Of a DNA stretch of 64,000 bases, positions 42,163 to 56,278 are shown piece by piece (positions within the stretch are counted from its first letter, which is position 1; each line of letters opens with the position of its first letter). The position numbers and the translations under genes were made by a program. The DNA lies in assembly GCA_963805085.1 (NCBI GenBank), contig CAWDTA010000004.1, positions 192,001 to 256,000 on the forward strand, written 5' to 3'. This DNA is from an uncultured Veillonellaceae bacterium. Its GTDB lineage: Bacteria > Bacillota > Negativicutes > JARBTT01. Below the pieces are notes generated by a model. The model did not search any database and was not told the DNA's origin. It saw only the letters and a list, made by a program, of their open reading frames with translations.

Positions 42163-45100
42163 TTACATTAATTCATTCACATTTTTCGGTTGTTTTTTTA
42201 TTTTTCTAGTACCAAATTTATCTGAAATTTTTTCTACTACCACAAACATAACTGGGATGAGGTAAATCCCCATAACGGTCGCTACAATCATACCACCAAC
42301 CACGGCAGTCCCCATTGCATTACGCGCACCAGCACCAGCACCAGTTGCCACTGCAAGTGGTAAACAACCGATAATAAACGCAAGTGATGTCATGATAATT
42401 GGGCGAAGACGAAGTTTTGCCGCTTCTACAGCTGCTTCTACTACTTCCATGCCTCTATCAACACGAACTTTTGCATACTCTACGATTAGAATTGCATTTT
42501 TCGCTGCCAAACCAATCAACATAACCAGACCGATTTGCATATATACACTATTAGCTAAATCACGTGCATACTCTGACAATAAAGCTCCAAAAACACCTGT
42601 TGGTATACAAAGCAGAACTGCGTAAGGCACTGTCCAACTTTCGTAAAGTGCTGCCAAACATAAGAATACAAATAAAATCGCTAAACCGAAAATAACCATC
42701 GTTCTACTACTAGCTTTTTGTTCTTCACGACTTTGCCCAGACCATTCATATTTAAAGCCCTCTGGCAATGATTCTTTAGCAACTTCTTGCATTGCGGCTA
42801 AAGCCTGCCCTGAACTATAACCATTCGCCGCCGAGCCATTAATTTGAATGCTACGTAAAGCATTGAAACGCGAAATATTTGCTGCAGCCGTTGTTGTTTT
42901 TGGTTTCAGCAAAGTATCAAGAGGGATTAACGCCCCAGTAGAAGATTTTACATATAGGAAACGTATCGTATCAGCTTCATTACGAAAACCACTATCCGCT
43001 TCCAATACTACTTTGTAAGTGCGCCCAAAACGATTAAAATCATTCACTTGCGAGCCACCAAAGTTTACTTGAAGCGCTGTAAATACATCGTCAAGCGCTA
43101 CACCGAGATTTTTAACTTTTTCACGGTCAACTTCAAATTCAACATTTGGTGAATTAATTGCAAATGTCGAATAGGCTTTTGAAATTTCTGGACGTTGATT
43201 CGCTGCAGCTACGAATTTTTTCGTAATTGTATCAAGTTCTTCATCCGTATGCCCCGACACATCTTGAAGCATCATTGTAAAACCACCGATCATACCAAGA
43301 CCAGGAAGCGATGGTGGATTGATTGGTATAATTGTAGCATTGGTAATCGCTGCTGTGTTTTTCATTATCATACCAATTTCTGCATTAATTTGCGTTTCTG
43401 GTGTAGTCCTTTCGCCCCAACTGTCAAGACTAATAAAAATAACCCCAGCATTCGATTTTGTTGCATTAGATAACAAATCTATACCACTAATTTCCATAGT
43501 ATTTTTTACACCAGGTTGTTGATGAATTGCATCAGCTACTTGTTTTATGGTTTCTTTTGTTCTATTTAAACTAGTACCTTCTGGTAAAGAAACCGCCGCA
43601 ATCAAGTAGCCTTGATCTTCATCAGGAACAAATGTTGATGGTACCAATTTGAATAAAGTAACAGTACCAATTACAATAAGCAATAAAAATAAACAAGCAT
43701 ATTTTGCATGGTGAATAATAGTTTTTACAATCTCACCATAAGTATTCGTATTTTTTTCAAACCATGCATTAAATTTATCAAAGAAACGTCCTAACCAGCC
43801 TTGATGTGCATTTGGAACATGCGGTTTTAAGATCATCGCACAAAGTGCCGGTGTTAAAGATAACGCCACAAACGCCGATAATGCCATCGATACAGCAATT
43901 GTTAACGCAAACTGTTTGTATAAAATCCCGGTCATGCCACCAAAGAATGCAACTGGAATAAATACACATGCAAGCACGAATGCAATTGCTACAACCGGAC
44001 CGGATACTTCATCCATCGCAAGTTTCGTTGCTTCTTTTGGATCAAGCCCTCTATAACGCATATTATGCTCTACTGCTTCAATAACAACAATCGCATCATC
44101 CACTACTAACCCGATTGCCAGAACCATCGCAAACAAAGTTAACGTATTAATGGAGAAGCCAAGTACTGAAAATGCGCCAAAAGTTGCAACCAACGATACT
44201 GGAATTGCCAGCATCGGAATCAACGTTGCCCGCCAACTTTGTAAGAATAAAAATACTACGAGTAATACGAGTAACAATGCCTCGGCAAACGTCTGTACTA
44301 CCTCAATGATAGATTCACGAACATATTCCGTATTATCTATAATTGGCTCTAGCTTCATATCTGGTGGAAAGCTTAATGAGGCTTCATCAAGTACTTTCTT
44401 AACTGCATTAACAGTTTGTAAAGCATTCGCATCATTTGTTAATTGAACACCAAAACCAACCGAATTCATACCATTTATTTTACTTCCAACCGTATTTGCT
44501 TTTGGTCCTGTTTCGACACGAGCAATATCTTTTAAGTAAATGAAGGAACCATTAGTTTTAGCACTAATGATAACATTTTCAAAGTCTTCAACTGTAGTAA
44601 GACGTCCTTTTACTTTACCAGTATATTGGAATTCTTGACCAGCAGGTGCTGGCATTTGACCAATCGTTCCAGCTGGCGCTTGAATATTTTGTTCTGTAAG
44701 TGCTGAAGATACATCGGCAACCGTTAAGCCAAGCTCTGCCATTTTATCTGGATTAATCCAGATGCGCATGGAAAAATCAGAACCATAGATATTGACATCC
44801 CCAACACCGTTAACACGTTTGATTGCATCAATGAGATAAACATCCGCATAATTTTTTAAGAATGTATTGTCATATGTCCCATTGGGAGAATATAACGCTA
44901 CCATGTACGCCATATCGGAAGAAGCTTTTTTAGTCGTAACACCAACTGATTGTACGGAAGATGGTAAGCTTGCATTCGCCTGTGCCACGTTGTTTTGCGT
45001 TTTAACAGCAGCCATATCACCATTTGTATCAGCATCGAATGTAACAGATAAGCTATATTTCCCACTATCATCACTGTTACTGCTCATATAATCCATACCC

Positions 45101-45318
45101 TGAACACCATTGACTTGTTGTTCAATAACTTGGGCTACTGTCTGGTTAACAACATCAGCACTCGCACCTGTATAAGAAGTACTAACGCTAACTGTTGCTG
45201 GCTGAATTTGCGGATATTGTGCAATTGGCAAGTTTACCGCGGAGATTGTACCTAAAAGCACCATCATTAACGATACTACAATCGCAAAGATCGGCCTTTC
45301 AATAAAAAATTTTGCCAC
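42163..45318 (-). CDS. RND efflux permease (HAE1, AcrB/BepE-like)
   Basis: FFIERPIFA, GLVVDDAIVV.E, GLAAKNAILIVE, RLRPIIMTSLAF. Confidence 0.95.
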   Translation of the reverse strand: MAKFFIERPIFAIVVSLMMVLLGTISAVNLPIAQYPQIQPATVSVSTSYTGASADVVNQTVAQVIEQQVNGVQGMDYMSSNSDDSGKYSLSVTFDADTNGDMAAVKTQNNVAQANASLPSSVQSVGVTTKKASSDMAYMVALYSPNGTYDNTFLKNYADVYLIDAIKRVNGVGDVNIYGSDFSMRIWINPDKMAELGLTVADVSSALTEQNIQAPAGTIGQMPAPAGQEFQYTGKVKGRLTTVEDFENVIISAKTNGSFIYLKDIARVETGPKANTVGSKINGMNSVGFGVQLTNDANALQTVNAVKKVLDEASLSFPPDMKLEPIIDNTEYVRESIIEVVQTFAEALLLVLLVVFLFLQSWRATLIPMLAIPVSLVATFGAFSVLGFSINTLTLFAMVLAIGLVVDDAIVVIEAVEHNMRYRGLDPKEATKLAMDEVSGPVVAIAFVLACVFIPVAFFGGMTGILYKQFALTIAVSMALSAFVALSLTPALCAMILKPHVPNAHQGWLGRFFDKFNAWFEKNTNTYGEIVKTIIHHAKYACLFLLLIVIGTVTLFKLVPSTFVPDEDQGYLIAAVSLPEGTSLNRTKETIKQVADAIHQQPGVKNTMEISGIDLLSNATKSNAGVIFISLDSWGERTTPETQINAEIGMIMKNTAAITNATIIPINPPSLPGLGMIGGFTMMLQDVSGHTDEELDTITKKFVAAANQRPEISKAYSTFAINSPNVEFEVDREKVKNLGVALDDVFTALQVNFGGSQVNDFNRFGRTYKVVLEADSGFRNEADTIRFLYVKSSTGALIPLDTLLKPKTTTAAANISRFNALRSIQINGSAANGYSSGQALAAMQEVAKESLPEGFKYEWSGQSREEQKASSRTMVIFGLAILFVFLCLAALYESWTVPYAVLLCIPTGVFGALLSEYARDLANSVYMQIGLVMLIGLAAKNAILIVEYAKVRVDRGMEVVEAAVEAAKLRLRPIIMTSLAFIIGCLPLAVATGAGAGARNAMGTAVVGGMIVATVMGIYLIPVMFVVVEKISDKFGTRKIKKQPKNVNELM

Positions 45319-45333
45319 TTAATTTACGCCCCC

Positions 45334-46506
45334 TTATGAGTTGAAGGACAATTGCAACTCTTCTGGAGTTACCTCTGTCACATCAAGGGCTATACCACTT
45401 TGAATCTTTGTTAACCCCTCAACAACAACCTTATCTGCTGCTGTTACACCAGATTTAACGATATAATAACTACCCACTTTTGAACCAAGTTTTACTTCAC
45501 GTGATTCAGCTTTATTATCTTCACCAACAACAATTACAAATGTTTTTTCCAACAATTGTTGAACTGCACGTTGCGGAATCAAAATCGCTCCCGGAACCGT
45601 TTCACCAGTAATTCTCACACGACCAAACATTCCTGGTATGAGAACACCATCGGGATTACCAAAGGAGGCTTTGAAACTTAATGTACCAGTTACTGTACCG
45701 CTACTATTAGAAAGTGATCTATCTTGCTGCTCAACTTTCCCCAGTACAGAATAGGATGAACCATTACTTAAAGTTAAAGCAACATTGTTCCCCCAGCCAT
45801 TGGCAATTCCGCCTTGATTACTTGCTGCTAATTCCAGATATTCATTTTCACTCATACTAAATTGAACAAACACCGGATCAGCCGAAGACACCGTTGCAAG
45901 AGTTGTAGAACCTGCTGTTACATAAGTACCAACACTAAGATCATTAACATCTAAACGACCATCAACTGGAGAAACAATAACAGTATCAGCTAAATCATCG
46001 GCGGCTTTTTTCACATTCGCACGATTATAGTCTACTGTTGCTGCATTTTCTCTTTCTGTAGCTTGTTGTGCAGTTAACGTTTGTACTGCAAGTGCGTCAT
46101 TGGCAACTAATTGCTCATAACGCTCTCTATCTAGCTGCGCATTGCTTAATGTCGCTTTTGATTGGGCTAAAGTTGCCTGTGCAGAATTTAACGCACTCTC
46201 ATATTGACGTTGATCAATTTTAAAAAGAGGCTGCCCTTTATGTACTACGTCACCACCATTGACTAATTTTTCTACGATATTCCCAGATACTCGTGTTTGA
46301 ATTTTCACTTCATTCTTCGCTTGTACTTGACCTGCGTATTCATAAGACATAGGAGTATCTCTTTGAATTACTGGCATCGCTTTTACTGCAACGGCTCCAC
46401 CGCCCTGCATTGCTTGTTGCTTATTCCCACATCCAACTGTCGTTGCTAACATGCTTATAGCAATCAAGCTAAAGCAACAAGCTTTCATTTTTTTTGCTGA
46501 AAACAC
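45334..46506 (-). CDS. RND periplasmic adaptor (AcrA-like lipoprotein)
   Basis: Lipobox TVGC, hairpin/lipoyl segments, L.PGMF, IPQRAV. Confidence 0.92.
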   Translation of the reverse strand: MFSAKKMKACCFSLIAISMLATTVGCGNKQQAMQGGGAVAVKAMPVIQRDTPMSYEYAGQVQAKNEVKIQTRVSGNIVEKLVNGGDVVHKGQPLFKIDQRQYESALNSAQATLAQSKATLSNAQLDRERYEQLVANDALAVQTLTAQQATERENAATVDYNRANVKKAADDLADTVIVSPVDGRLDVNDLSVGTYVTAGSTTLATVSSADPVFVQFSMSENEYLELAASNQGGIANGWGNNVALTLSNGSSYSVLGKVEQQDRSLSNSSGTVTGTLSFKASFGNPDGVLIPGMFGRVRITGETVPGAILIPQRAVQQLLEKTFVIVVGEDNKAESREVKLGSKVGSYYIVKSGVTAADKVVVEGLTKIQSGIALDVTEVTPEELQLSFNS

Positions 46507-46612
46507 TATTTTCTATTCCTCCTTCATATTTAAAACCCATAAAATCACATACCTCGCTCAAAATATTAAGCAAGACATGTGATTTCTCACAAGTTTTAAT
46601 TAACTCATTTTT

Positions 46613-46636
46613 AATAGTAAATAGTTATTTACTATT
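46613..46636. promoter_or_regulatory. Putative MarR operator between the divergent RND operon and marR
   Basis: Perfect 11-2-11 inverted repeat AATAGTAAATA-GT-TATTTACTATT. Confidence 0.6.
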
Positions 46637-46715
46637 CATGAATATTATAGTATATTATTGTTATATGTTTGTCAATCTATTTTTACCGAAGAAAGGAGAA
46701 TCCATTTTAATCATT

Positions 46716-47147
46716 ATGGATAAGATTATAAGAAGATCTCTAGCAAAAGGTATCGCTGAAAGCTTTACCGTCTTCCATCAGAAGTTTGTCCGGGAACTGC
46801 CTTTTACTGTTCCCGCCAATCATTGCCTTACCTTGGTGATTCTACATGACCATGGAACACAAACTATTTCTGAACTATCAGAAAGATTACTAATTTCAAA
46901 ACAACAAATGTCTCCTATCATTGATAAGTTATGTAAAACAGGCCTTGTCAAACGTGAACAAGATCCTAAGGATAGACGAAATAGTAATATTACCATTTTG
47001 CCAGCTGGCTATGCTATTTTAGAAAAGCATCATCAAACCATGATTGATATATTAGATAGAAAATTAGAATCTCTTGAAGATATTGATATAATAGAATTTC
47101 AAAAAGCGTTAAAAGTTTGTTTTGGAATTTTCCACAAAATTTCCTAA
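46716..47147 (+). CDS. MarR family regulator
   Basis: TISELSERLLISKQQMSPIIDKL..GLVKR..DPKDRR; start corrected to the ATG after AAGGAG. Confidence 0.88.
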   Translation: MDKIIRRSLAKGIAESFTVFHQKFVRELPFTVPANHCLTLVILHDHGTQTISELSERLLISKQQMSPIIDKLCKTGLVKREQDPKDRRNSNITILPAGYAILEKHHQTMIDILDRKLESLEDIDIIEFQKALKVCFGIFHKIS

Positions 47148-47242
47148 AGAAAAATCATTTTGTTAATTTTTCTTTCCTTAATTAATGGAATAAATCAACT
47201 ACATATAAATCACACACATTTGTATTACCGCCACAAACATTA

Positions 47243-47349
47243 TTGACATATGAAATGTAATGGTGTAGACTACTTTTTAAGTCATTTATTCGACTTTTAT
47301 GTGTGCCTATCAGCCAAGATAACCACTTGTTATCTTGGCTGTCATTTTT
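47243..47349 (+). promoter_or_regulatory. SigA promoter plus structured leader with a terminator-like hairpin
   Basis: TTGACA-17-TAGACT (47243-47271); hairpin CAGCCAAGATAAC-CACTT-GTTATCTTGGCTG followed by TCATTTTT before the RBS. Confidence 0.55.
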
Positions 47350-47381
47350 CATTATTAGAATACATAGGAGGTTTTTCTATT

Positions 47382-48341
47382 ATGAGTAAAAACAGATTGG
47401 TTATTGTTGGCGTAGGTAATGTTGGTTCTGCGGTATTAAATCGTGCGATTGCCTTTGAATTGGTTTCTGAAATCGTACTGATTGATAGTAATGAAAAAAA
47501 AGCAATTGGTGAAGCATTAGATGCAGAGCATTCCACCCCATGTAATTACAGTGCAAATATTCGTGTGCGTGCTGGTAGTTATGAAGATTGTAAAGATGCA
47601 CGTCTGATCATCATCGCAGCGGGTACAGGTACAATTAACGGTAAATTAATTCAAGATAGATTATTACTGGCTGAATATAGCCTTGGTATTATCAAGGAAG
47701 TTATGAAAGGGATCACAAGCTATACAAGAGATGTTCCTATTATTATGATTACGAACCCACTTGATGTCACGACTTACTTAGCTGCTAATTTCTTTGACTA
47801 TCCTAAATATAAATTATTTGGCACAGGTACGACACTTGAAACACATCGTTTCAAGAGAATCGTTGCCAACCATTACAATGTCGATGCTAAAGATGTGCAA
47901 GGTTATATGCTAGGTGAACACGGTAACTCCGCTTTCCCTGCTTGGAGTACATTATCCATCGGTGGCATGCGTGCTGATCGCTTAGATGAATACTTTAGCC
48001 CAAGCAATCCACTTGATCGCAGCTTTGTTGAAGAAGAAGTTGTCAAAACAGCATTTGATGTATTACATTTTAAAGGATACACCAACTATGGCATCGCAAT
48101 GGGTGCGTGTCGTCTTGCCAAAGCAGTGTTATGGAATGAACGCAGTGTATTACCAGTTTCCACTACACTCAAAGGCGCTTATGGCTTAAGCGATGTTTCC
48201 CTTAGTCTACCTGCCATCATCACCGAAGAAGGTGTCGAAAGAGTACTGCAAATTCCACTTTCTGATCAAGAGTTAGAAAAATTACAGTTTAGTGCAAACA
48301 GTATTAAAGCAGTGTTAACATCTAATAATCTAATTAAATAG
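47382..48341 (+). CDS. L-lactate/2-hydroxyacid dehydrogenase family protein (atypical substrate loop)
   Basis: GVGNVG, ITNPLD, GTTLETHRF, GEHGNS, KGYTNYG; ATG at 47382 follows AGGAGG. Confidence 0.85.
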   Translation: MSKNRLVIVGVGNVGSAVLNRAIAFELVSEIVLIDSNEKKAIGEALDAEHSTPCNYSANIRVRAGSYEDCKDARLIIIAAGTGTINGKLIQDRLLLAEYSLGIIKEVMKGITSYTRDVPIIMITNPLDVTTYLAANFFDYPKYKLFGTGTTLETHRFKRIVANHYNVDAKDVQGYMLGEHGNSAFPAWSTLSIGGMRADRLDEYFSPSNPLDRSFVEEEVVKTAFDVLHFKGYTNYGIAMGACRLAKAVLWNERSVLPVSTTLKGAYGLSDVSLSLPAIITEEGVERVLQIPLSDQELEKLQFSANSIKAVLTSNNLIK

Positions 48342-48356
48342 TAAAGGTTGATTCAG

Positions 48357-49529
48357 ATGAGAAATTTTACTTCCTTAAAAGCAGCGCAATTTACCGAATC
48401 GGTTATTCGTGAAATGTCACGCGTCGCAAATGCAAACAAAGCAGTTAACTTAGCACAAGGGTTTCCTGATTTTCCCGCACCAGATGCGCTAAAAATTGCT
48501 GCTGCTAAAGCAATTTTTAATGACCACAACCAATATGCCATCACTTGGGGTACTAAGGAACTTCGTGATGCTCTCGTTGGCAAAATTGAACGCGACTACA
48601 ATACAACCCTTGACCCCGAAAAACAAATCACGGTTTGCTGCGGAGCGACGGAAGGTATGATTGCCACATTACTTGCGACCATTAATCCTGGCGATGAAGT
48701 AATCATCTTTGAACCATTCTATGAAAATTATGGCGCCGATGTCATCCTTTGCGGAGCAACTCCTCGTTACATAACGTTAGAAGCACCAAATTATGTACTT
48801 GATAAAGAAAAACTAGCAAGTCTTTTCAATGAAAAAACTCGGGCAATTATTTTAAATACACCTAACAATCCAACTGGTAAAGTATTTACCTTAGGAGAAA
48901 CACAATTTATCGCTGATCTTTGCCAACAATACGATGCTTTAGCCATCAGCGATGAAATTTACGAACATATTGTATTCGATGGTACGAAACATATTCCGAT
49001 TTGGACGCTACCAAATATGTTTGAACGATCGATTGCCGTCAATAGTGTTTCTAAAACGTATAGTGTAACTGGTTGGCGGATTGGCTTTGTTACAGCTTCA
49101 CCTGAACTTACAGCATCTATCCGCAAGGTACATGATTTCCTAACGGTCGGGGCAGCAGCTCCGCTTCAAATGGCAATTGCCGAAGCTTTTAATTTCGGTC
49201 AAGATTATTATGATCAGCTCAGTGCCTTTTACTTAGAGCGCCGCGACTTTATGCTTAAGGTGTTAAATGATGTTGGCTTTCAATGTATTGTTCCCCATGG
49301 CGCTTATTACATCATGGCCGATATCACGAACTTTGGCTACGAAGATGATGTTGACTTTGCTTTTTACCTAGCTGAAAAAATTGGCGTAGCGGTAGTTCCC
49401 GGCTCGACTTTTTATCGCGCTAATATGCCTGACGGCAAAAAATATGTCCGCTTCTGCTTTTGTAAAGAATATACAACACTCCAAGCAGCTGCTGGTCGTT
49501 TAGCTAAATTAAAAGGTTATAAAAAATAA
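48357..49529 (+). CDS. PLP-dependent class I aminotransferase (YbdL/kynurenine aminotransferase-like)
   Basis: NLAQGFPDF, NTPNNPTGK, DEIYEH, SVSKTYSVTGWRIG. Confidence 0.88.
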   Translation: MRNFTSLKAAQFTESVIREMSRVANANKAVNLAQGFPDFPAPDALKIAAAKAIFNDHNQYAITWGTKELRDALVGKIERDYNTTLDPEKQITVCCGATEGMIATLLATINPGDEVIIFEPFYENYGADVILCGATPRYITLEAPNYVLDKEKLASLFNEKTRAIILNTPNNPTGKVFTLGETQFIADLCQQYDALAISDEIYEHIVFDGTKHIPIWTLPNMFERSIAVNSVSKTYSVTGWRIGFVTASPELTASIRKVHDFLTVGAAAPLQMAIAEAFNFGQDYYDQLSAFYLERRDFMLKVLNDVGFQCIVPHGAYYIMADITNFGYEDDVDFAFYLAEKIGVAVVPGSTFYRANMPDGKKYVRFCFCKEYTTLQAAAGRLAKLKGYKK

Positions 49530-49577
49530 AGACAAATGCCTAGCGAGTTTTATCTCTGCTAAGCATTTGTTTTCTTT

Positions 49578-49940
49578 TTATATGCCATCACCGTACAGCC
49601 CTTGTAAATCTTCAAAACGATGTTTTTCTAACTTTTCAATTTGTGCCACTTTATAATCCTTAATATTGATACTGATTTGCCCAAACTTAATATCTTTTAA
49701 ATAGCAATTTAACTTCTTACGTAAATTTTCATGAATCTGCTTGTTTGATAAAGTTCTTTTTTCTTTCTTTTTGCTGATGCTGGCAGCATCCAAACGAAAT
49801 TTTTCTGTTTTTTCAAATTGAATAAGACGTCCATCTTGAACTGTCAAAATTACCGTACCATAGCCTGTATCTATCACTTCATCTTCAATCAAAGTCCAAG
49901 CTTCTCCCGATATGATCAATGCAATCTCACCACCAAACAC
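49578..49940 (-). CDS. Tandem YezD/DUF2292 (OscA-like) domain protein with C-terminal YGDGI
   Basis: Two copies of the [YF]G.[VI].[LI].[VI].D.+[LV].Q.EK.EK.R[LF] pattern; own promoter TTGAAA-17-TAGTAT (50000-50028); the true start may be TTG at 49919. Confidence 0.75.
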   Translation of the reverse strand: MFGGEIALIISGEAWTLIEDEVIDTGYGTVILTVQDGRLIQFEKTEKFRLDAASISKKKEKRTLSNKQIHENLRKKLNCYLKDIKFGQISINIKDYKVAQIEKLEKHRFEDLQGLYGDGI

Positions 49941-50046
49941 TTCGTTTTTAAATTACATAGAAAGTTCCCGTAAAATGTTCCTTTTTTACATTTATAGGTA
50001 TACTATCATATAAAGCCATTTTTTTCAATTGGATCTATCAATGATT

Positions 50047-50910
50047 CTATAATGCGGTTTTTAACTTTTCGGTAAACTCCGCCCAACCAATACGCTCAAG
50101 CATCGTATAGAAACGTTCTTTCTTTTTGCCATTGGCTGCAAAATAGTCAAGTGTGATATCGATTACTTTATAAACCTCTTCAACACTAAATACTATTGGT
50201 ATAATTTTCTTACCAATAGCGATGGTATTGCCAAATAAACCGCCAAAATAAATTACAAATCCTTCTCGCCCTGTCCAGGACTTTCTCGGACAAATCTTAA
50301 CGCATTTGCCGCATTGTACACATTTATTTTCATTATAGTTTAATGTTTTTTTATTTTTATTTACGCGAATTGCTTTTCCTGGGCAGACTTTTACACAAGC
50401 GCTACAATAAACACAGTCGTCTTCCGACCACGCTGGCTGTAATCCACCTTTAATACCAATATCATTGATATCAGCTTTCAGGCAATTATTTCTACAGCCA
50501 GTAACACCAATTTTGATCTTATGTGGCAACTCACGACCATAACAACGTTTGTCAATTTCATCGGCAAGTGCTATCGTGTCAACATGCCCATGCTGACAAA
50601 CAGCATTTCCTTGACAGGCCGTTACCGTTCTAACTCTTGACCCACATACGCCAATTTGAACTTCACCATCTGCTAGTGCAGCTTTAAAAGCTTCGATATC
50701 TTCCAATTTGATATAGGGTATTTCCACGCTTTGTCTGGAAGTAATATGCACATAACCTTTGCCATATTTTTCAGCCGCTTCACTGATGGTCTGCAACTGC
50801 TTAGCAGTAATTTGTCCGCCGATCACCCTCAATCTTACCGAAAAATGATCTGCCTGATTTTGTAACATAAATCCATTGCTTTTTAAATTTTTATAATCAA
50901 CTTGTACCAT
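50047..50910 (-). CDS. Siroheme sulfite/nitrite reductase-like protein with a 2x[4Fe-4S] ferredoxin insert (AsrC/Dsr-like)
   Basis: VHITSRQSVE, ACQGNAVC, KIKIGVTGCRNNC, two CxxCxxCxxxCP motifs, KKERF..MLERIG. Confidence 0.85.
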   Translation of the reverse strand: MVQVDYKNLKSNGFMLQNQADHFSVRLRVIGGQITAKQLQTISEAAEKYGKGYVHITSRQSVEIPYIKLEDIEAFKAALADGEVQIGVCGSRVRTVTACQGNAVCQHGHVDTIALADEIDKRCYGRELPHKIKIGVTGCRNNCLKADINDIGIKGGLQPAWSEDDCVYCSACVKVCPGKAIRVNKNKKTLNYNENKCVQCGKCVKICPRKSWTGREGFVIYFGGLFGNTIAIGKKIIPIVFSVEEVYKVIDITLDYFAANGKKKERFYTMLERIGWAEFTEKLKTAL

Positions 50911-50952
50911 AAAAATTCTCCTTTATCTTATATTTTCAAAAACGCCAACACC

Positions 50953-51012
50953 AAAAAGGCAAAAGAGACAGAATTACACCTGTTATCTTTTGCCTTCAGT
51001 TATCTGATCAGC
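50953..51012 (-). promoter_or_regulatory. Leader element 1: 21-nt hairpin overlapping an intrinsic terminator
   Basis: GCTGATCAGATAACTGAAGGC, then AAAAGA..TCTTTTGCCTTTTT; promoter TTGACA-17-TAAATT at 51039-51067. Confidence 0.7.
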
Positions 51013-51246
51013 TAAATATTGAATTTACTATTTCATCTAATTTACTAGTTTTTTATTGATTTGTCAATATAAAGATTACATTTCACCTTACTTCTTTATG
51101 AAAAATTCTATTCTATATTGTTTTGACTATATAGTAAAATACATTTGTAGTTAATCCAACAACACTTGCGGTTATATTAAAAGGCAATTGTACAAGCTCG
51201 GTGCTTTCATTAATATTGCTGACAATCATCCAATTTTAGAAATAAC

Positions 51247-51305
51247 AAAAGGCAAAAAATATAAGGTCATTTCTTATATCTTCTGCCTTCAGCTTTCCGA
51301 TCAGC
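51247..51305 (-). promoter_or_regulatory. Leader element 2: 21-nt hairpin overlapping an intrinsic terminator
   Basis: GCTGATCGGAAAGCTGAAGGC, then AGAAGATATAAG..CTTATATTTTTTGCCTTTTG. Confidence 0.7.
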
Positions 51306-51395
51306 TAAATATTAAATTGGTTATCTTAAATTACGTTAAATATAATTCCGTTCATGAGAGCTAACTATCATTTAGTGATTTCGTTAAAGCAAATT

Positions 51396-51473
51396 TTATT
51401 TAGGTGCAATAGCAGTCACAAAAGTAAGCACCAATAATATTGCCATAATTCCATAATTTGTCTTTTGATTCAT
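51396..51473 (-). pseudogene. 25-aa signal-peptide-like ORF, probably the remnant of a deleted exported protein gene
   Basis: AAGGAGG RBS then MNQKTNYGIMAILLVLTFVTAIAPK*, directly after leader element 3. Confidence 0.45.
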
Positions 51474-51495
51474 AAGAAATACCCTCCTTGATAAT

Positions 51496-51556
51496 AAAAA
51501 GACAAAAGTAATAGATTCTAAAATCTATTGCCTTTGCCTTTAGATTTCTAATCAGC
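51496..51556 (-). promoter_or_regulatory. Leader element 3: 21-nt hairpin overlapping an intrinsic terminator
   Basis: GCTGATTAGAAATCTAAAGGC, then AAAGGCAATAGATT..AATCTATTACTTTTGTCTTTTT; consensus TTGACA-17-TATAAT at 51583-51611. Confidence 0.7.
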
Positions 51557-51854
51557 AAACCGCACTGTTTATTGATTTTTATATTATAATCCATTTTCAT
51601 AATTTTGTCAAGTATTTTTATAATTCAAGTGTGTGAATGATATACGATAATGTCCTATTATACAGTTTTTGATTATGTCCCAATCCACATGATATACTGT
51701 AGCCTTATTCAGAAAATATAGAATGTTACAGTTTTTTATTTATCTATTGTTTTTTTCCTTTTTTGTGTTAATATTATTGATTATACAATTAACTATATTT
51801 GGAATAAATATTAGTTAATACGTCATTAACAATATTAATAAGGAGGATTTTCTT

Positions 51855-52708
51855 ATGCAAATTTTAAGCAAAAACTTCCTATATATTCATTTGGTCGTTT
51901 TATTCTTTGCATTTTCTAGTTTATTTGGTGAGCTAATAACGTTACCAGCTCTTGCCATAATATTGGGTAGAGTCTTTTTTTCTTCGGCATTCCTATTTAT
52001 ATTCTCTCAATATAATAAAGAAACATTACGGTTTTCCAAGCGGATTAATCATGCCTATCTTGCTTTAATGGGGATTATCCTAGTGATTCATTGGGCAACA
52101 TTCTTTCAATCAGTGCAGCTGTCTACAGTCGCCATTGGCCTGCTGACGTTTTCCATCTTTCCTTTACTCGTACCTTATATGGAAAACTTCTTTTTAAAGA
52201 AAAGCTCAAACTCTCTGATATTATCATGGCAAACATCATGTTCTGCGGTATTTTATTGATATTACCAAACTTTGAAATACCCAATGCCACCATCCAAGGA
52301 ATACTTTACGGTTCTATCGCTGGTTTTACTTATGCAAATTTATCCTTGATTAACCGTAAATGTGTAAAAGAGTATTGTAGCCTCGTGATCTCGCTCTATG
52401 AGCAGGCAGTGGCAACGACATTTCTACTACCATTTCTTTTTATTGAAACACCTAAATTTACAATAAATGATATTTTATTACTCATGATTTTAGGTACAAT
52501 TTTGACAGGTATTGCACATGCATTATTTATTCATGGCTGGAAAAGTATTTGCGCTAAAACATCAGGTATGGTCACTTATTTTGAACCCATTTACGGAATC
52601 ATCATTGCTACAATGACGATTCAAGCAATTCCTACTGTTAATGAGATGTTTGGTGCCGTTATCATACTAAGCACTGTACTCTATCATTCCTTTAATCAAA
52701 GAGCTTAA
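51855..52708 (+). pseudogene. EamA/DMT transporter split by a 1-nt frameshift
   Basis: N-terminal half ..PYMENF joins C-terminal half FKEKLKLSD.. if the T5 run at 52191-52195 were T6. Confidence 0.7.
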
Positions 52709-52725
52709 GATTCGTTATTAAACGC

Positions 52726-52766
52726 AAAAATTCCGTAGTGTATGTTCGGCACTACGGAATTTTTTT
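52726..52766. terminator. Bidirectional terminator
   Basis: AAAAATTCCGTAGTG..CACTACGGAATTTTTTT. Confidence 0.8.
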
Positions 52767-53396
52767 ATTTAAGCATAAGTCACAAACTAAATTAAAATAA
52801 CAAAATTGTACAAAAAGCCAACACATAGTGTAGGCTCACTTGAATCTTGACTTTTTGTATCTTCGTTGGTGTATTTTATCGAATTATTCGAAACAAACAA
52901 AGCATTAGCAATCATTAATTGCAATTATTTTTTATTAATCAATATTTATAGTTTACCTATTAGGAGTGGTTTTGTCAATAAACAAAAGTGTTTTTTTATG
53001 TATTTTTCTTGAACACTTTACCTATGAAATTTCAATAACTCTTTACTAAACATTACAATGGTAAGAAAAGTAAAAAAAAGCTAGCAAATCTGCTAGCTTT
53101 TATTTTGGGTTGTTTTTATGGAAACCTGAGCTACAAATTAAAGCGTACAAGGCAAGTACGCTATGTATTTCAGGAATATCAAAAATTTATTTATTGGATA
53201 TTTAGATTATTATTATTTATTAGCGCCTATCTATTAAATAACTTATATTAATAGATTAATACTTATATGCAAGTTTGTCAACAACTAATTATAATAATAG
53301 TTAATGGTTTTATCTAGTAGTAATTAGTTTTATTAATTGTAATACTTATACTAAATAAGCTATTTAATAAAAATTATACAACATAAAAAACTATTT

Positions 53397-54806
53397 TTAC
53401 CAAAGTCCAAGTACTTTCCACCATGCACCGCCAATACCTAACCAAATTACTACGTTAAGAGTAGTAAGAATGAAACCAAGTTTCCACCATTCACCTTGTG
53501 TTACATAGCCTGCACCGAATATGATCGGACCTGCAGCGCCACCGAAGTGTGTTAACGGAATCATAATGTTAGATAAAAATGCAAATGCTAAAGCTGCAAG
53601 AAGTGGTGGTGCGCCTGCGGCTACCGAAATTGCAAGGAATGCCGCGTACATTGCACTGATATGTGCTGTAACGCTTGCGAAGCCATAATGCGCATATACA
53701 TAGACAATGATTAATATAGAAAATGCAGCAATCCAAGATAAGCCTGCGGCTGCGATTATTACACCTGCTGATTTAGCAATCCAAGCGATAAAACCTGATT
53801 TTTCAAGAGCAGTTGCCAATGCAATCAGTGCCCCCATCCAGAACATTGTATCCCAAGCGCCTTTTTCTTGGAGAATGTCTTGCCATGTGAGTGCATTAAA
53901 AACAACCATAACACAGACAGCCATCATTGCTACAACAGTTGCATTTATATGTGTAATATCAGAAGTTGCCCAGAGAACCAATGCACCAACGAATACACAA
54001 GCAACAATTTTTTCAATGGTTGTCATCGGTCCCATGATTCCAAGCTCTTTTTCCGCCAAACCTTTTGCATCTGGCATCGCTTTGATTTCCGGTGGATACA
54101 GTTTGTAAAGAACATATGGCATAACTAGAAGCGAAATCACCCCTGGAACAAAAGCCGCAACAGCCCAAGAATTCCAAGTTAATTGCACACCGATTGTTTT
54201 TGCTGCAAGCTCTGCAGAAAGTGGATTACCAGCCATTGCAGTTAAGAACATTGCGCAAGTGATTGCATTTGCATGGTATTCAACCTGCATGATATAAGCA
54301 CCAAACTTACGAGCAGTAGGCCCAGGTTCAGAGCCTAATGCAGATGAAAGACTTTTTATAATCGGGAATATAATCCCACCGGCACGCGCTGCACTGGAAG
54401 GTGTTGCTGGAGAAATAACGAAATCACTCAAGGTGATTGCATAGCCAAGTGTTAAGGAAGATCTACCAATTAATTTAATAATAACGAAAGCAATTCTTCT
54501 ACCAAGACCGCTCTTGATAAAGCCACGAGCAAATAAAAAAGCACAAATGATAAGCCAAATCGTACTATTACCAAAGCCAGCAAGTGCTTCATCTAGCTTC
54601 AATGTATTAGAAAATGCCGAGAAGGTAACAGAAATTAATGCAATTGCTCCGATTGGCAATGGTTGTAAAATAAAGCCTAGAATTGTTGCAGCAAAGATTG
54701 CAAATAAATGCCACGCTGTTACTTTTAACCCTTCTGGCACGGGACAGAACCAAAGGATGATACCAAACGCAAGCACTATTGCTGCATTACGAGTGTTTTT
54801 ATTCAT
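53397..54806 (-). CDS. DASS family di/tricarboxylate transporter (CitT/TtdT-like)
   Basis: KSGLGRRIA, TPSSAARAGG, FLTAMAGNPL, FASVTAH, WWKVLGLW. Confidence 0.9.
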   Translation of the reverse strand: MNKNTRNAAIVLAFGIILWFCPVPEGLKVTAWHLFAIFAATILGFILQPLPIGAIALISVTFSAFSNTLKLDEALAGFGNSTIWLIICAFLFARGFIKSGLGRRIAFVIIKLIGRSSLTLGYAITLSDFVISPATPSSAARAGGIIFPIIKSLSSALGSEPGPTARKFGAYIMQVEYHANAITCAMFLTAMAGNPLSAELAAKTIGVQLTWNSWAVAAFVPGVISLLVMPYVLYKLYPPEIKAMPDAKGLAEKELGIMGPMTTIEKIVACVFVGALVLWATSDITHINATVVAMMAVCVMVVFNALTWQDILQEKGAWDTMFWMGALIALATALEKSGFIAWIAKSAGVIIAAAGLSWIAAFSILIIVYVYAHYGFASVTAHISAMYAAFLAISVAAGAPPLLAALAFAFLSNIMIPLTHFGGAAGPIIFGAGYVTQGEWWKLGFILTTLNVVIWLGIGGAWWKVLGLW

Positions 54807-54928
54807 ACTATTCGCACCTTTCATCTCTGACTACTGAAAGGTGTCAATATTATGCAATAAGCGATGGAGCGAACCCCACCGCCTATTGTAATATAACCTA
54901 ACAGTTGTCTTCCACTGTTTCTTCATTG

Positions 54929-56278
54929 TTATTTTGCGTTGTATTTTTCAAGGACACGATCAGCAAATTGTGGAGCATACCCTATATAGTTATGAGGATC
55001 AATCATCGATGCAATTTCTTCGTCAGTGAAAGCTTCACGGACTTTTGGTTCTGCTTTTAACGCCACATCCATAAATTCTTCTTCTTCGTATGCTTTCATA
55101 CAAGTTCTGTAAACAATATCATGCGCAGTCATACGACCTAATTTAGGTGCTAAGTGCATCATTACGCATTCGCTCATCATGATACCTCTTAATTTATTTA
55201 AGTTATTTTCCATGTGTTTAGGGTAAACGATTAAGTTTTCTAATACATCCATAGATTTTTCAAGAGCAGCACCTAATAAGTGACAAGCACGAGGAATCGC
55301 TTCCCATTCACTAATGAAACAGCCCCAATCACGTTCATTTTCACTTACCATTGATTCAACAACAGCAGGAGCAATGCTTCTTACATTACGGCAAAGAGCG
55401 ATAATATTTTCAACAACTTGAGGATTGCGTTTATGAGGCATTGTGGAGGAACCAACTTTCCCCATGAAAAACGGTTCTTCTAATTCAATAATTTCAGTTC
55501 TTTGTAACGAAAGAATCTCACTTGCAATTTTACCGATTGTACCAGCGACGATTGCAAGTGTGCTAGCAAATTCAGCTTGGTTATCACGTGCTACATGCCA
55601 AGAAATAGTTGGAACGTTTAATTCTAGTATTTCCATCATTCTAGCTTGAACTTCAAGACCTTTTTCAGGATGAGATGCTAAAGTGCCAACAGCACCAGAC
55701 ATTTGACCAACAAATACTCTATCTTTCATCGCTTCCATACGTTCGATGTTTCTACCAATTTCATCAGCCCATATAGCAACTTTGTAGCCAAGAGTGATCG
55801 GTAATGCATGGATTACATGCGTACGACCACACATGATTGTATCTCTGTGCTCTTTCACTAATTTAAGCACTGATTTTTGACAAATTTTCAATTGATCAAG
55901 TACTATATAATATGCATCTCTCATTTGAAGAACAAGACCAGTATCTACAATATCTTGGCTAGTTGCGCCCCAGTGAACATATTCACCTGCATTATCATCT
56001 AAGACAACTTTAAAAGCTTTCAATAAAGGAACGATTGTTATTGAACTTTTATAATATTCACCGATTTGTGGTATATCTAGCAATTCAGCGTTTGCTTTTT
56101 TATTGATTTCGTCAGCTTTTGCTTTCGGAATAATCCCTAGTTCTCCTTGCGCTTTTGCAAGTGCTGCTTCTGTATCTAACCATTTTTGAGCGACATTTTT
56201 ATCACTAAAAACCTCTCTCATTTTTTCTGTACTAAATAAACAACCAAAAATTTCACTGTCGATAGCTGTTGATGCCAT
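54929..56278 (-). CDS. Fumarase/aspartase superfamily lyase (adenylosuccinate lyase/PcaB-like)
   Basis: VHWGATSQDI.D, GRTH, GAVGT, GSSTMPHKRNP, ERDW. Confidence 0.85.
   Translation of the reverse strand: MASTAIDSEIFGCLFSTEKMREVFSDKNVAQKWLDTEAALAKAQGELGIIPKAKADEINKKANAELLDIPQIGEYYKSSITIVPLLKAFKVVLDDNAGEYVHWGATSQDIVDTGLVLQMRDAYYIVLDQLKICQKSVLKLVKEHRDTIMCGRTHVIHALPITLGYKVAIWADEIGRNIERMEAMKDRVFVGQMSGAVGTLASHPEKGLEVQARMMEILELNVPTISWHVARDNQAEFASTLAIVAGTIGKIASEILSLQRTEIIELEEPFFMGKVGSSTMPHKRNPQVVENIIALCRNVRSIAPAVVESMVSENERDWGCFISEWEAIPRACHLLGAALEKSMDVLENLIVYPKHMENNLNKLRGIMMSECVMMHLAPKLGRMTAHDIVYRTCMKAYEEEEFMDVALKAEPKVREAFTDEEIASMIDPHNYIGYAPQFADRVLEKYNAK

Follow-up and report, generated by a model that had tools for sequence, protein, structure and literature searches.

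We found that a small gene on the reverse strand (49578..49940) of a 64,000-nucleotide stretch of DNA from an uncultured Veillonellaceae bacterium (contig CAWDTA010000004.1 of assembly GCA_963805085.1, positions 192,001 to 256,000; the whole stretch is hereafter the window) encodes a tandem DUF2292 protein that ends, like E. coli CysE, in the five residues YGDGI. We consider it fairly probable, from the sequence and the analyses made of it, that this protein is an accessory factor of the sulfur-limitation response that docks into the active site of CysK (O-acetylserine sulfhydrylase). The window protein is not unique, and belongs to a widespread subfamily already annotated as 'YezD family protein'; a look-up in database clusters returned solely 'YezD family', 'DUF2292' and 'uncharacterized' clusters (score 0.89 each). 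What is new here is that an unrelated small-protein family carries a putative CysE-type CysK-docking tail. Our literature searches, in which supplementary files lay outside the search, returned no paper on an interaction between DUF2292 proteins and CysK or on the tail.

The domain architecture could be established directly. The initial annotation of this gene had read two DUF2292 repeats in it, and the Pfam model (PF10055) did match the protein in two stretches (E 4.6e-20, 71.4 bits against a cut-off of 22). The peptides quoted in that annotation, YGTVILTVQDGRLIQFEKTEKFRL (residues 27-50) and FGQISINIKDYKVAQIEKLEKHRF (residues 86-109), and the C-terminal end EDLQGLYGDGI are all present in 49578..49940 (-). 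When we scanned the whole assembly (5 contigs, 4.21 Mb, 83% completeness), the same two stretches were recovered and no further DUF2292 gene was found in it. The Pfam search of the window protein found DUF2292 alone and no serine acetyltransferase (SATase) or hexapeptide domain, so the protein is not CysE. With 45.2 bits it also falls below the cut-off of 85 of the NCBIfam OscA equivalog (NF033785), and it is therefore related to OscA without being an OscA equivalog. The parts of the protein, in the numbering of the 120 amino acid (aa) product, are as follows.

49578..49940 (-): tandem DUF2292 (YezD-family) coding sequence, GTG start at 49940, stop at 49578-49580, 120 aa
49791..49907 (-): first DUF2292 unit, residues 12-50, with a helix (12-24) and a beta-hairpin (27-35/38-47)
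49743..49790 (-): Lys-rich linker, residues 51-66, with a modelled helix (52-61), lower model confidence and poor conservation
49614..49742 (-): second DUF2292 unit, residues 67-109, with a helix (67-81) and a beta-hairpin (86-94/97-105)
49581..49613 (-): tail EDLQGLYGDGI, residues 110-120; in alignment A1, G117 and G119 do not vary and the conservation of I120 reaches at least 90%

The AlphaFold2 model, made from a 59-row alignment, has a mean predicted local distance difference test score (pLDDT) of 83.7 and a predicted template modelling score (pTM) of 0.73, and consists of two equivalent units, each a helix followed by a beta-hairpin. The tail has no regular structure after residue 110, and its mean pLDDT falls to 63 (residues 111-120) against 87 for residues 101-110. 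In 10 of 63 related loci the two units are encoded by separate adjacent open reading frames (ORFs), only the second of which is tailed, and these split loci indicate one tail per dimer. The twin units of the model and the split ORFs both fit a fused single-chain pseudo-dimer, as the initial annotation had supposed. In three of the split loci a single in-frame TGA divides the units (L083 4586-4966, L087 5998-6417 and L090 3690-4070). This TGA form was seen in genomes G002 and G024 and the form with two adjacent ORFs in G010, G031, G054, G044, G016 and G013; six N-domain ORFs of split forms end ...LC. A sequence search of the PDB found no solved DUF2292 structure, its sole matches (E 0.003 or weaker) being chance ones to staphylococcal superantigen-like proteins. 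Foldseek, run with the model against the PDB, gave no match at E <= 0.001 (best E 0.096), and the fold therefore yields no functional lead.

The tail and its conservation were likewise established directly. The annotated cysE of E. coli K-12 (NC_000913) translates to ...NGINHTFEYGDGI and ends ...FEYGDGI, as the initial annotation had stated. That annotation had made its proposal depend on the tail being conserved in homologues, and this is what we observed. An exhaustive HMMER search of 1.84 billion representatives of 50%-identity clusters gave 85 matches at E <= 1e-3, of which 71 end in G-x-G-I and 69 in G-[DE]-G-I; within the 71 representatives of 95-160 aa, G-x-G-I ends 63. The consensus of this set is G-[LMVI]-[YDFH]-G-[DE]-G-I-COOH. 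A search with a word index, too coarse for the DUF2292 family, recovered three close relatives at near lengths and none shorter. We also sampled 61 genomes of the same class, 41 of which have a homologue, and obtained 63 loci (62 fetched plus the window's own). G-[DE]-G-I ends the full-length or second-domain ORF in 61 of them, at 27-47% identity, and the two exceptions end GEGL and SEGI.

Alignment A1 comprises 59 of 88 proteins. The three giant proteins, proteins shorter than 95 aa and several of 137-150 aa were left out, as were the tail-less P0052, P0055, P0067, P0071, P0076, P0081 and P0082. Since A1 omits most tail-less sequences, the tail counts were taken from all 85 matches. The only invariant residues of A1 are G28, G87, G117 and G119, at a mean column identity of 36%; Q35, Q41 and R108 of the body are nearly invariant. 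In the proteome of the organism the motif is rarer than expected by chance, as G-x-G-I ends just two of the 12,764 ORFs of at least 50 aa, although 1,087 of them end in Ile, and the window protein is the sole one ending in G-[DE]-G-I. By these counts the tail is not due to chance.

What such a tail can do is taken from the literature, which describes the insertion of the tails of CysE, CymR and CdiA-CT into CysK. CysE depends on its C-terminal Ile as the critical anchor, a device also found in CdiA-CT and EGL-9 (PMC5562914). The decapeptides of Staphylococcus aureus CymR and CysE behave in the same way, the Ile carboxylate bonding to T73, N76, T77 and Q145 (bioRxiv 10.1101/2024.09.19.614015). 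The free pentapeptide YGDGI has a dissociation constant (KD) of 11.8 uM for Salmonella CysK and of 4922 uM for StCysM (table in the review PMC9547175).

The tail of the window protein resembles that of E. coli and Salmonella CysE in its identical YGDGI, its free Ile carboxylate and its predicted flexibility. The rest of the protein differs from CysE, the body being unrelated and devoid of a SATase or hexapeptide domain, and forming a monomeric pseudo-dimer of 113-120 aa where CysE is a hexameric enzyme. An unrelated body with a C-terminal Ile tail is also what we find in CymR (Bacillus/Staphylococcus), CdiA-CT (E. coli 536) and EGL-9 with CYSL-1, whose tails occupy the CysK active site. Unlike them, however, the DUF2292 protein has a body of a different family without known activity, and is often encoded in one operon with cysK. 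With the single-domain YezD (B. subtilis) and OscA (Pseudomonas) it shares the DUF2292 domain and a sulfur-limitation context. B. subtilis yezD is under CymR and Spx repression (PMC3479203). In P. corrugata, chromate resistance requires oscA, which under sulfur stress is transcribed together with sbp (PMC2996968, citing Viti et al. 2009). In contrast to YezD and OscA, the window protein has two domains per chain and a G-[DE]-G-I tail, while the single-domain forms that we examined end soon after EK.R and are tail-less.

The presence of a canonical CysK in the genome was also established directly: one CysK scores above the TIGR01139 cut-off (464 bits), and CysM models stay below their own cut-offs. 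T74, S75, G76, N77, T78, Q147 and F148, which make up the TSGNT loop and the QF pair, are the same in all 23 CysK sequences compared within the class. A CysK with an intact substrate-carboxylate loop, such as docking calls for, is therefore encoded in the same genome. We infer that the window protein binds this CysK and inhibits it, in a manner sensitive to O-acetylserine and with a purpose in the sulfur-limitation response. The flexible tail, Y-G-D-G-I-COOH, would insert into the active-site cleft of this enzyme, the only CysK detected (contig C2, 242706-243608), as the Ile tail of CysE does, with the Ile carboxylate placed on the TSGNT loop and the Gln, at the substrate-carboxylate site. Binding would occlude the active site, and O-acetylserine would presumably reverse it. 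The pseudo-dimer could then serve the sulfur-limitation response as an accessory or regulator that docks into CysK, and would be produced alongside enzymes that generate sulfide or salvage sulfur, here possibly the small sulfite-reductase-like protein encoded next to it. The protein could be an inhibitor or plug of CysK, or CysK could be the sensor for a DUF2292 effector.

The CysE of the organism is encoded by a separate gene (C4:125563-126045) and, unlike E. coli CysE, has a long helical, coiled-coil-like C-terminal extension that ends ...NVKSL. Among the CysE C-termini of 30 relatives (L125-L154), the last residue is Ile in 4, Leu or Val in 13 (mostly ...KS[LV]) and polar in 13. As most of these enzymes have no terminal Ile, the DUF2292 protein of the class is closer to the textbook CysK ligand than is CysE itself. 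These sequences suggest that Negativicutes may depart from the canonical cysteine synthase complex with its dependence on Ile.

The initial annotation had proposed a structure prediction of the complex with the CysK of this genome. When CysK (alignment A2) was paired with residues 68-120 of the window protein (alignment A1), the score was 0.52, against 0.00 for the best of three controls, among them one in which CysK was swapped for an unrelated protein. The contact agreement between runs was at least 94% and the pLDDT of the partner at least 70. In the benchmark 58 of 80 solved complexes passed the mark, as did 2 of 110 mismatched pairs; these counts hold only roughly here because our own alignments were used. 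The prediction lends weak support to CysK docking, and all the computational checks that were run favour what the initial annotation had inferred.

The gene-order link between DUF2292 genes and cysK is a direct observation as well. In the 61 genomes of the class, cysK lies within 2 kb of 32 of the 67 DUF2292 matches, in all 32 cases on the same strand and mostly immediately downstream. They occur in 28 of the 41 genomes, and in 13 of the 18 families, that have a match; the distance table behind these counts comprised 89 cysK rows above the cut-off and two truncated contig-end rows, other rows below the cut-off having been dropped. Rough arithmetic, with about two cysK genes per genome of about 3.5 Mb, puts the chance of such an adjacency at about 0.3% per gene. 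When ORFs within 2 kb and on the same strand were clustered, CysK was the commonest neighbour (30 of 63 loci), followed by a cystathionine-gamma-lyase-like pyridoxal phosphate (PLP) enzyme (Cys_Met_Meta_PP, 17 loci), a LarE-like PP-loop sulfur transferase (10) and MetQ-type lipoproteins (8). NifH/NifB/NifDK-like genes, SsuA-type binding proteins and NIR_SIR proteins (three loci, four within 6 kb) were also recurrent.

A second sample, drawn from named genome contigs and partly overlapping the first, comprised 18 tailed tandem loci and 55 short single-domain tail-less ORFs. The tandem loci come from Massilibacillus, Propionispira, Pelosinus, Selenomonas, Sporomusaceae, Veillonellaceae, metagenome-assembled genomes (MAGs) labelled 'Bacillota' and one MAG labelled Anaerotignum. 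The sources of the short forms are Lachnospiraceae, Ruminococcus, Butyrivibrio, Clostridium, Paenibacillus, Thermoactinomyces, Planctomycetota, Kuenenia and Chloroflexota. In 21 of these 55 loci (L176, L187, L189, L190, L194, L198-L200, L202, L204, L207, L209, L211, L213, L217, L220-L222, L224, L225 and L233) the tail-less ORF lies 1-98 bp downstream of a same-strand cysK, with one overlapping it by 3 bp. These cysK-adjoining forms are 48-61 aa long and come from Lachnospiraceae, Ruminococcus, Clostridium and one Planctomycetaceae MAG. Pairs of cysK and yezD genes thus exist well outside Negativicutes, and since the pairing of DUF2292 with cysK is broader than the tail, it raises the prior probability that the family works with CysK.

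Several observations nonetheless weigh against docking by the tail. The sole cysK of the genome is on another contig (C2) and not beside the tandem gene, and the close orthologues in genomes G001 and G004 are likewise not beside cysK. In the second sample cysK was found within the fetched 4 kb flanks of just 3 of the 18 tailed tandem loci, and within 4 kb on either side of none of the eight Selenomonas ones. The linkage of tail-less forms to cysK means that the tail is not the whole explanation and that gene order alone is no proof of docking; co-regulation, or a function of the domain that does not depend on the tail, could explain the gene order. Related genomes are moreover non-independent samples. 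A dedicated paralogue clade of DUF2292-adjacent cysK genes was ruled out, as the adjacent CysKs form no such clade on a 52-row tree, where the label needs 8 changes, and the CysK of the window genome groups with non-adjacent ones. Of the 85 representatives 14 have no G-x-G-I tail (three giant multidomain proteins, three short tail-less single-domain proteins and eight others, one of which ends GDGL), and the CysE enzymes ending in KS[LVI] (17 of 30) might still bind CysK. The complex score is in the weak band and was returned without contacts; at or below 0.60 there were just 7 of the 80 solved complexes, plus both mismatches that passed. CysK-peptide complexes have already been solved, so the pass may reflect likeness to them and not binding by this copy. 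The description of the window protein as a new CysK-associated protein is supported within limits: gene order, motif and the weak complex prediction speak for the association, but the protein is not unique and tail-less forms are equally linked to cysK.

The giant proteins with DUF2292-like stretches are P0017 (3464 aa, two stretches), P0048 (1569 aa, five) and P0070 (2974 aa, four).

If docking is real, its direction could be the reverse of simple inhibition, with CysK as the sensor and the DUF2292 pseudo-dimer as the effector, as in CymR-CysK, EGL-9-CYSL-1 and CdiA-CT-CysK. At low O-acetylserine the small protein would be retained or activated by CysK, to be released when O-acetylserine rises, and the freed or bound DUF2292 body would act on some other target, for instance a promoter, an RNA or a sulfur-salvage enzyme. 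The same tail and gene-order evidence serves this explanation, and the papers on known non-CysE partners describe such a use of CysK (PMC5562914; bioRxiv 10.1101/2024.09.19.614015). The body is itself conserved in its nearly invariant Q35, Q41 and R108 and is linked to cysK even without a tail, which suggests a function of its own, and its copies adjoin varied sulfur-salvage systems (NifH/NifB/NifDK-like, LarE-like, and MetQ/SsuA-type transporters). We nevertheless regard a reversed direction as unlikely, as no DNA- or RNA-binding fold was recognised in the Foldseek search of the PDB (best E 0.096) and there is no known target; the present data do not separate it from simple inhibition of CysK.

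The main rival to docking itself is plain co-regulation. A generic OscA/YezD-like sulfur-starvation protein would merely be expressed with cysK, its identity with the CysE tail would be coincidental, and the tail would serve another partner contact, stability or oligomerisation. The tail-less forms, which are just as tightly linked to cysK (21 of 55), fit this explanation, as do the position of the window gene and its closest orthologues away from cysK, the 3 of 18 tandem loci near cysK in the second sample and the weak complex score. However, conservation is highest in the last four residues (mean column identity of the protein 36%), their motif is very rare in the proteome (2 of 12,764 ORFs), the tail is modelled as unstructured and not packed on the body, and the exact pentapeptide has a measured affinity for CysK in the review table cited above, all of which leads us to hold co-regulation alone to be quite unlikely. 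It is very improbable that the tail has as its target, in place of CysK, the sulfite-reductase-like neighbour or a further recurrent one such as the LarE-like sulfur transferase or the cystathionine-gamma-lyase-like PLP enzyme: the first is encoded immediately upstream on the same strand in the window, and the three families recur near the loci (NIR_SIR in 4 of 63, Cys_Met_Meta_PP in 17 of 63 within 2 kb, LarE-like in 10 of 63), but each is rarer there than cysK (30 of 63), no precedent for docking of a C-terminal Ile was found in those families, and the unrelated protein used as a control, itself not a neighbour protein, scored 0.00 in the complex prediction.

The favoured reading, docking of the tail into CysK, could be extended to a bolder one. 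The whole DUF2292 family (YezD, OscA and relatives, from Bacillota to Planctomycetota) would then be dedicated partners of CysK, and the single-chain dimer of Negativicutes, with its CysE-mimic tail, would have taken over the role of plug and of O-acetylserine/sulfide sensor from a CysE that is mostly Ile-less (4 of 30 with Ile), giving a cysteine-synthase-like regulatory complex built from a non-enzyme. We regard this extension as rather doubtful.

The signals and genes around the tandem gene in the window are the following.

49515..49577 (-): putative intrinsic terminator, a hairpin then a U-run directly 3' of the stop, probably common to the convergent aminotransferase gene
49917..49919 (-): alternative start TTG at codon 8, giving 113 aa, with a Shine-Dalgarno-like GGTGGTGAG 6 nt upstream
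50000..50028 (-): promoter-like TTGAAA-17-TAGTAT with a TG extension, in the 106-nt spacer 5' of the gene; consensus match only
50047..50910 (-): small sulfite/nitrite-reductase-like gene, 287 aa, with NIR_SIR_ferr, NIR_SIR and two 4Fe-4S motifs, 106 nt upstream
51248-51290 (-): terminator-like hairpin, between the perfect promoter and the sulfite-reductase-like gene
51583-51611 (-): perfect TTGACA-17-TATAAT, about 670 nt upstream of the sulfite-reductase-like gene
51855-52708 (+): EamA-family transporter, apparently split, with two overlapping ORFs (134 and 205 aa)

There is an in-frame TAA four codons 5' of the GTG at 49940. The homologue P0003 of Anaerosinus massiliensis, annotated by NCBI as 'YezD family protein' and 84% identical, starts at the residue equivalent to the TTG of codon 8. 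Because of this matching start and of the Shine-Dalgarno-like sequence 6 nt upstream, translation probably begins at the TTG at 49919, which makes the product 113 aa long, not 120. The hairpin of the putative terminator has a folding energy of -23 kcal/mol (z -7.84), and none of 200 shuffled sequences folds equally well; a consensus terminator scan did not flag it. The promoter-like site at 50000..50028 matches the consensus at 9 of 12 positions, and sites of equal quality are equally frequent in shuffled sequence. An Rfam scan of 44000-56000 (E <= 0.1) found neither a riboswitch nor a T-box. Its sole match, to Ysr283 at 54110-54293 (+) (36.9 bits against a gathering threshold of 58, E 2.3e-7), lies antisense inside the Na+/sulfate-symporter-family gene and is probably meaningless.

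The sulfite-reductase-like gene is a possible operon partner of the tandem gene. Its 287-aa product resembles sulfite reductase subunit C and DsrA/B but remains below their cut-offs (165.7 bits against 324.1 for subunit C, TIGR02912). The perfect promoter upstream of it, together with the intervening hairpin, suggests a long regulated leader. A 66-aa Cys-rich ORF (51400-51600, -) was considered as an attenuation leader peptide and rejected, its ATG lying upstream of the likely transcription start (promoter 51611..51583). Farther upstream are the split EamA-family transporter and then the Na+/sulfate-symporter-family gene. A frameshift, decay to a pseudogene or an error in the assembly could account for the split; a MAG of the same genus has one EamA ORF of 284 aa (L063 3223-4077, Pfam EamA).

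Convergent with the tandem gene are a methionine-aminotransferase-like gene, an L-lactate-dehydrogenase-family gene and a MarR regulator, and the aminotransferase cluster occurs within 6 kb in 18 of the 63 loci. In the same-genus genome G001 we observed the same arrangement and, in addition, a second copy of the DUF2292 gene, which lies 2.2 kb away from a divergent, opposite-strand cysK. The window assembly, being 83% complete, may lack such a second, cysK-near copy.

Two kinds of neighbour in other loci are described here in their own right. In L065, L070, L083, L096, L098, L101, L107, L108, L110 and L109 the tandem gene immediately adjoins a gene for a LarE-family ATP-dependent sulfur transferase, which scores 322.5 bits on TIGR00268 (cut-off 150). 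These LarE-like PP-loop neighbours had prompted the idea that the protein could be a sulfur carrier of the ThiS/MoaD/CysO type with a processed C-terminus, which we rejected because the end is Gly-Ile and not Gly-Gly and because there is no beta-grasp fold, no conserved Cys and no ThiS/MoaD match in Pfam. Second and third tailed tandem copies in relatives adjoin nitrogenase-like sets (NifH and NifB above cut-off, NifD/K-like) and SsuA-type ATP-binding cassette transporters, at loci that include L080, L099, L100, L104, L106, L082, L084 and L089. From their gene content these sets look like sulfur-salvage clusters and not nitrogen-fixation ones.

DUF2292, YezD and OscA proteins are widespread small proteins, without known mechanism, that sulfur limitation induces and that have a link to chromate resistance. 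The tail and the recurrent adjacency of cysK give the family a concrete partner that can be tested cheaply. Interfaces between CysK and its partners are pursued as targets of antibiotic adjuvants, and a natural, highly conserved family of ligands would for this reason be a useful source of peptide scaffolds. If docking is true, the tandem DUF2292 protein would be a fifth, independently evolved user of the CysK active site, and would reveal a way in which CysK may remain regulated in bacteria that have no canonical Ile tail on CysE.

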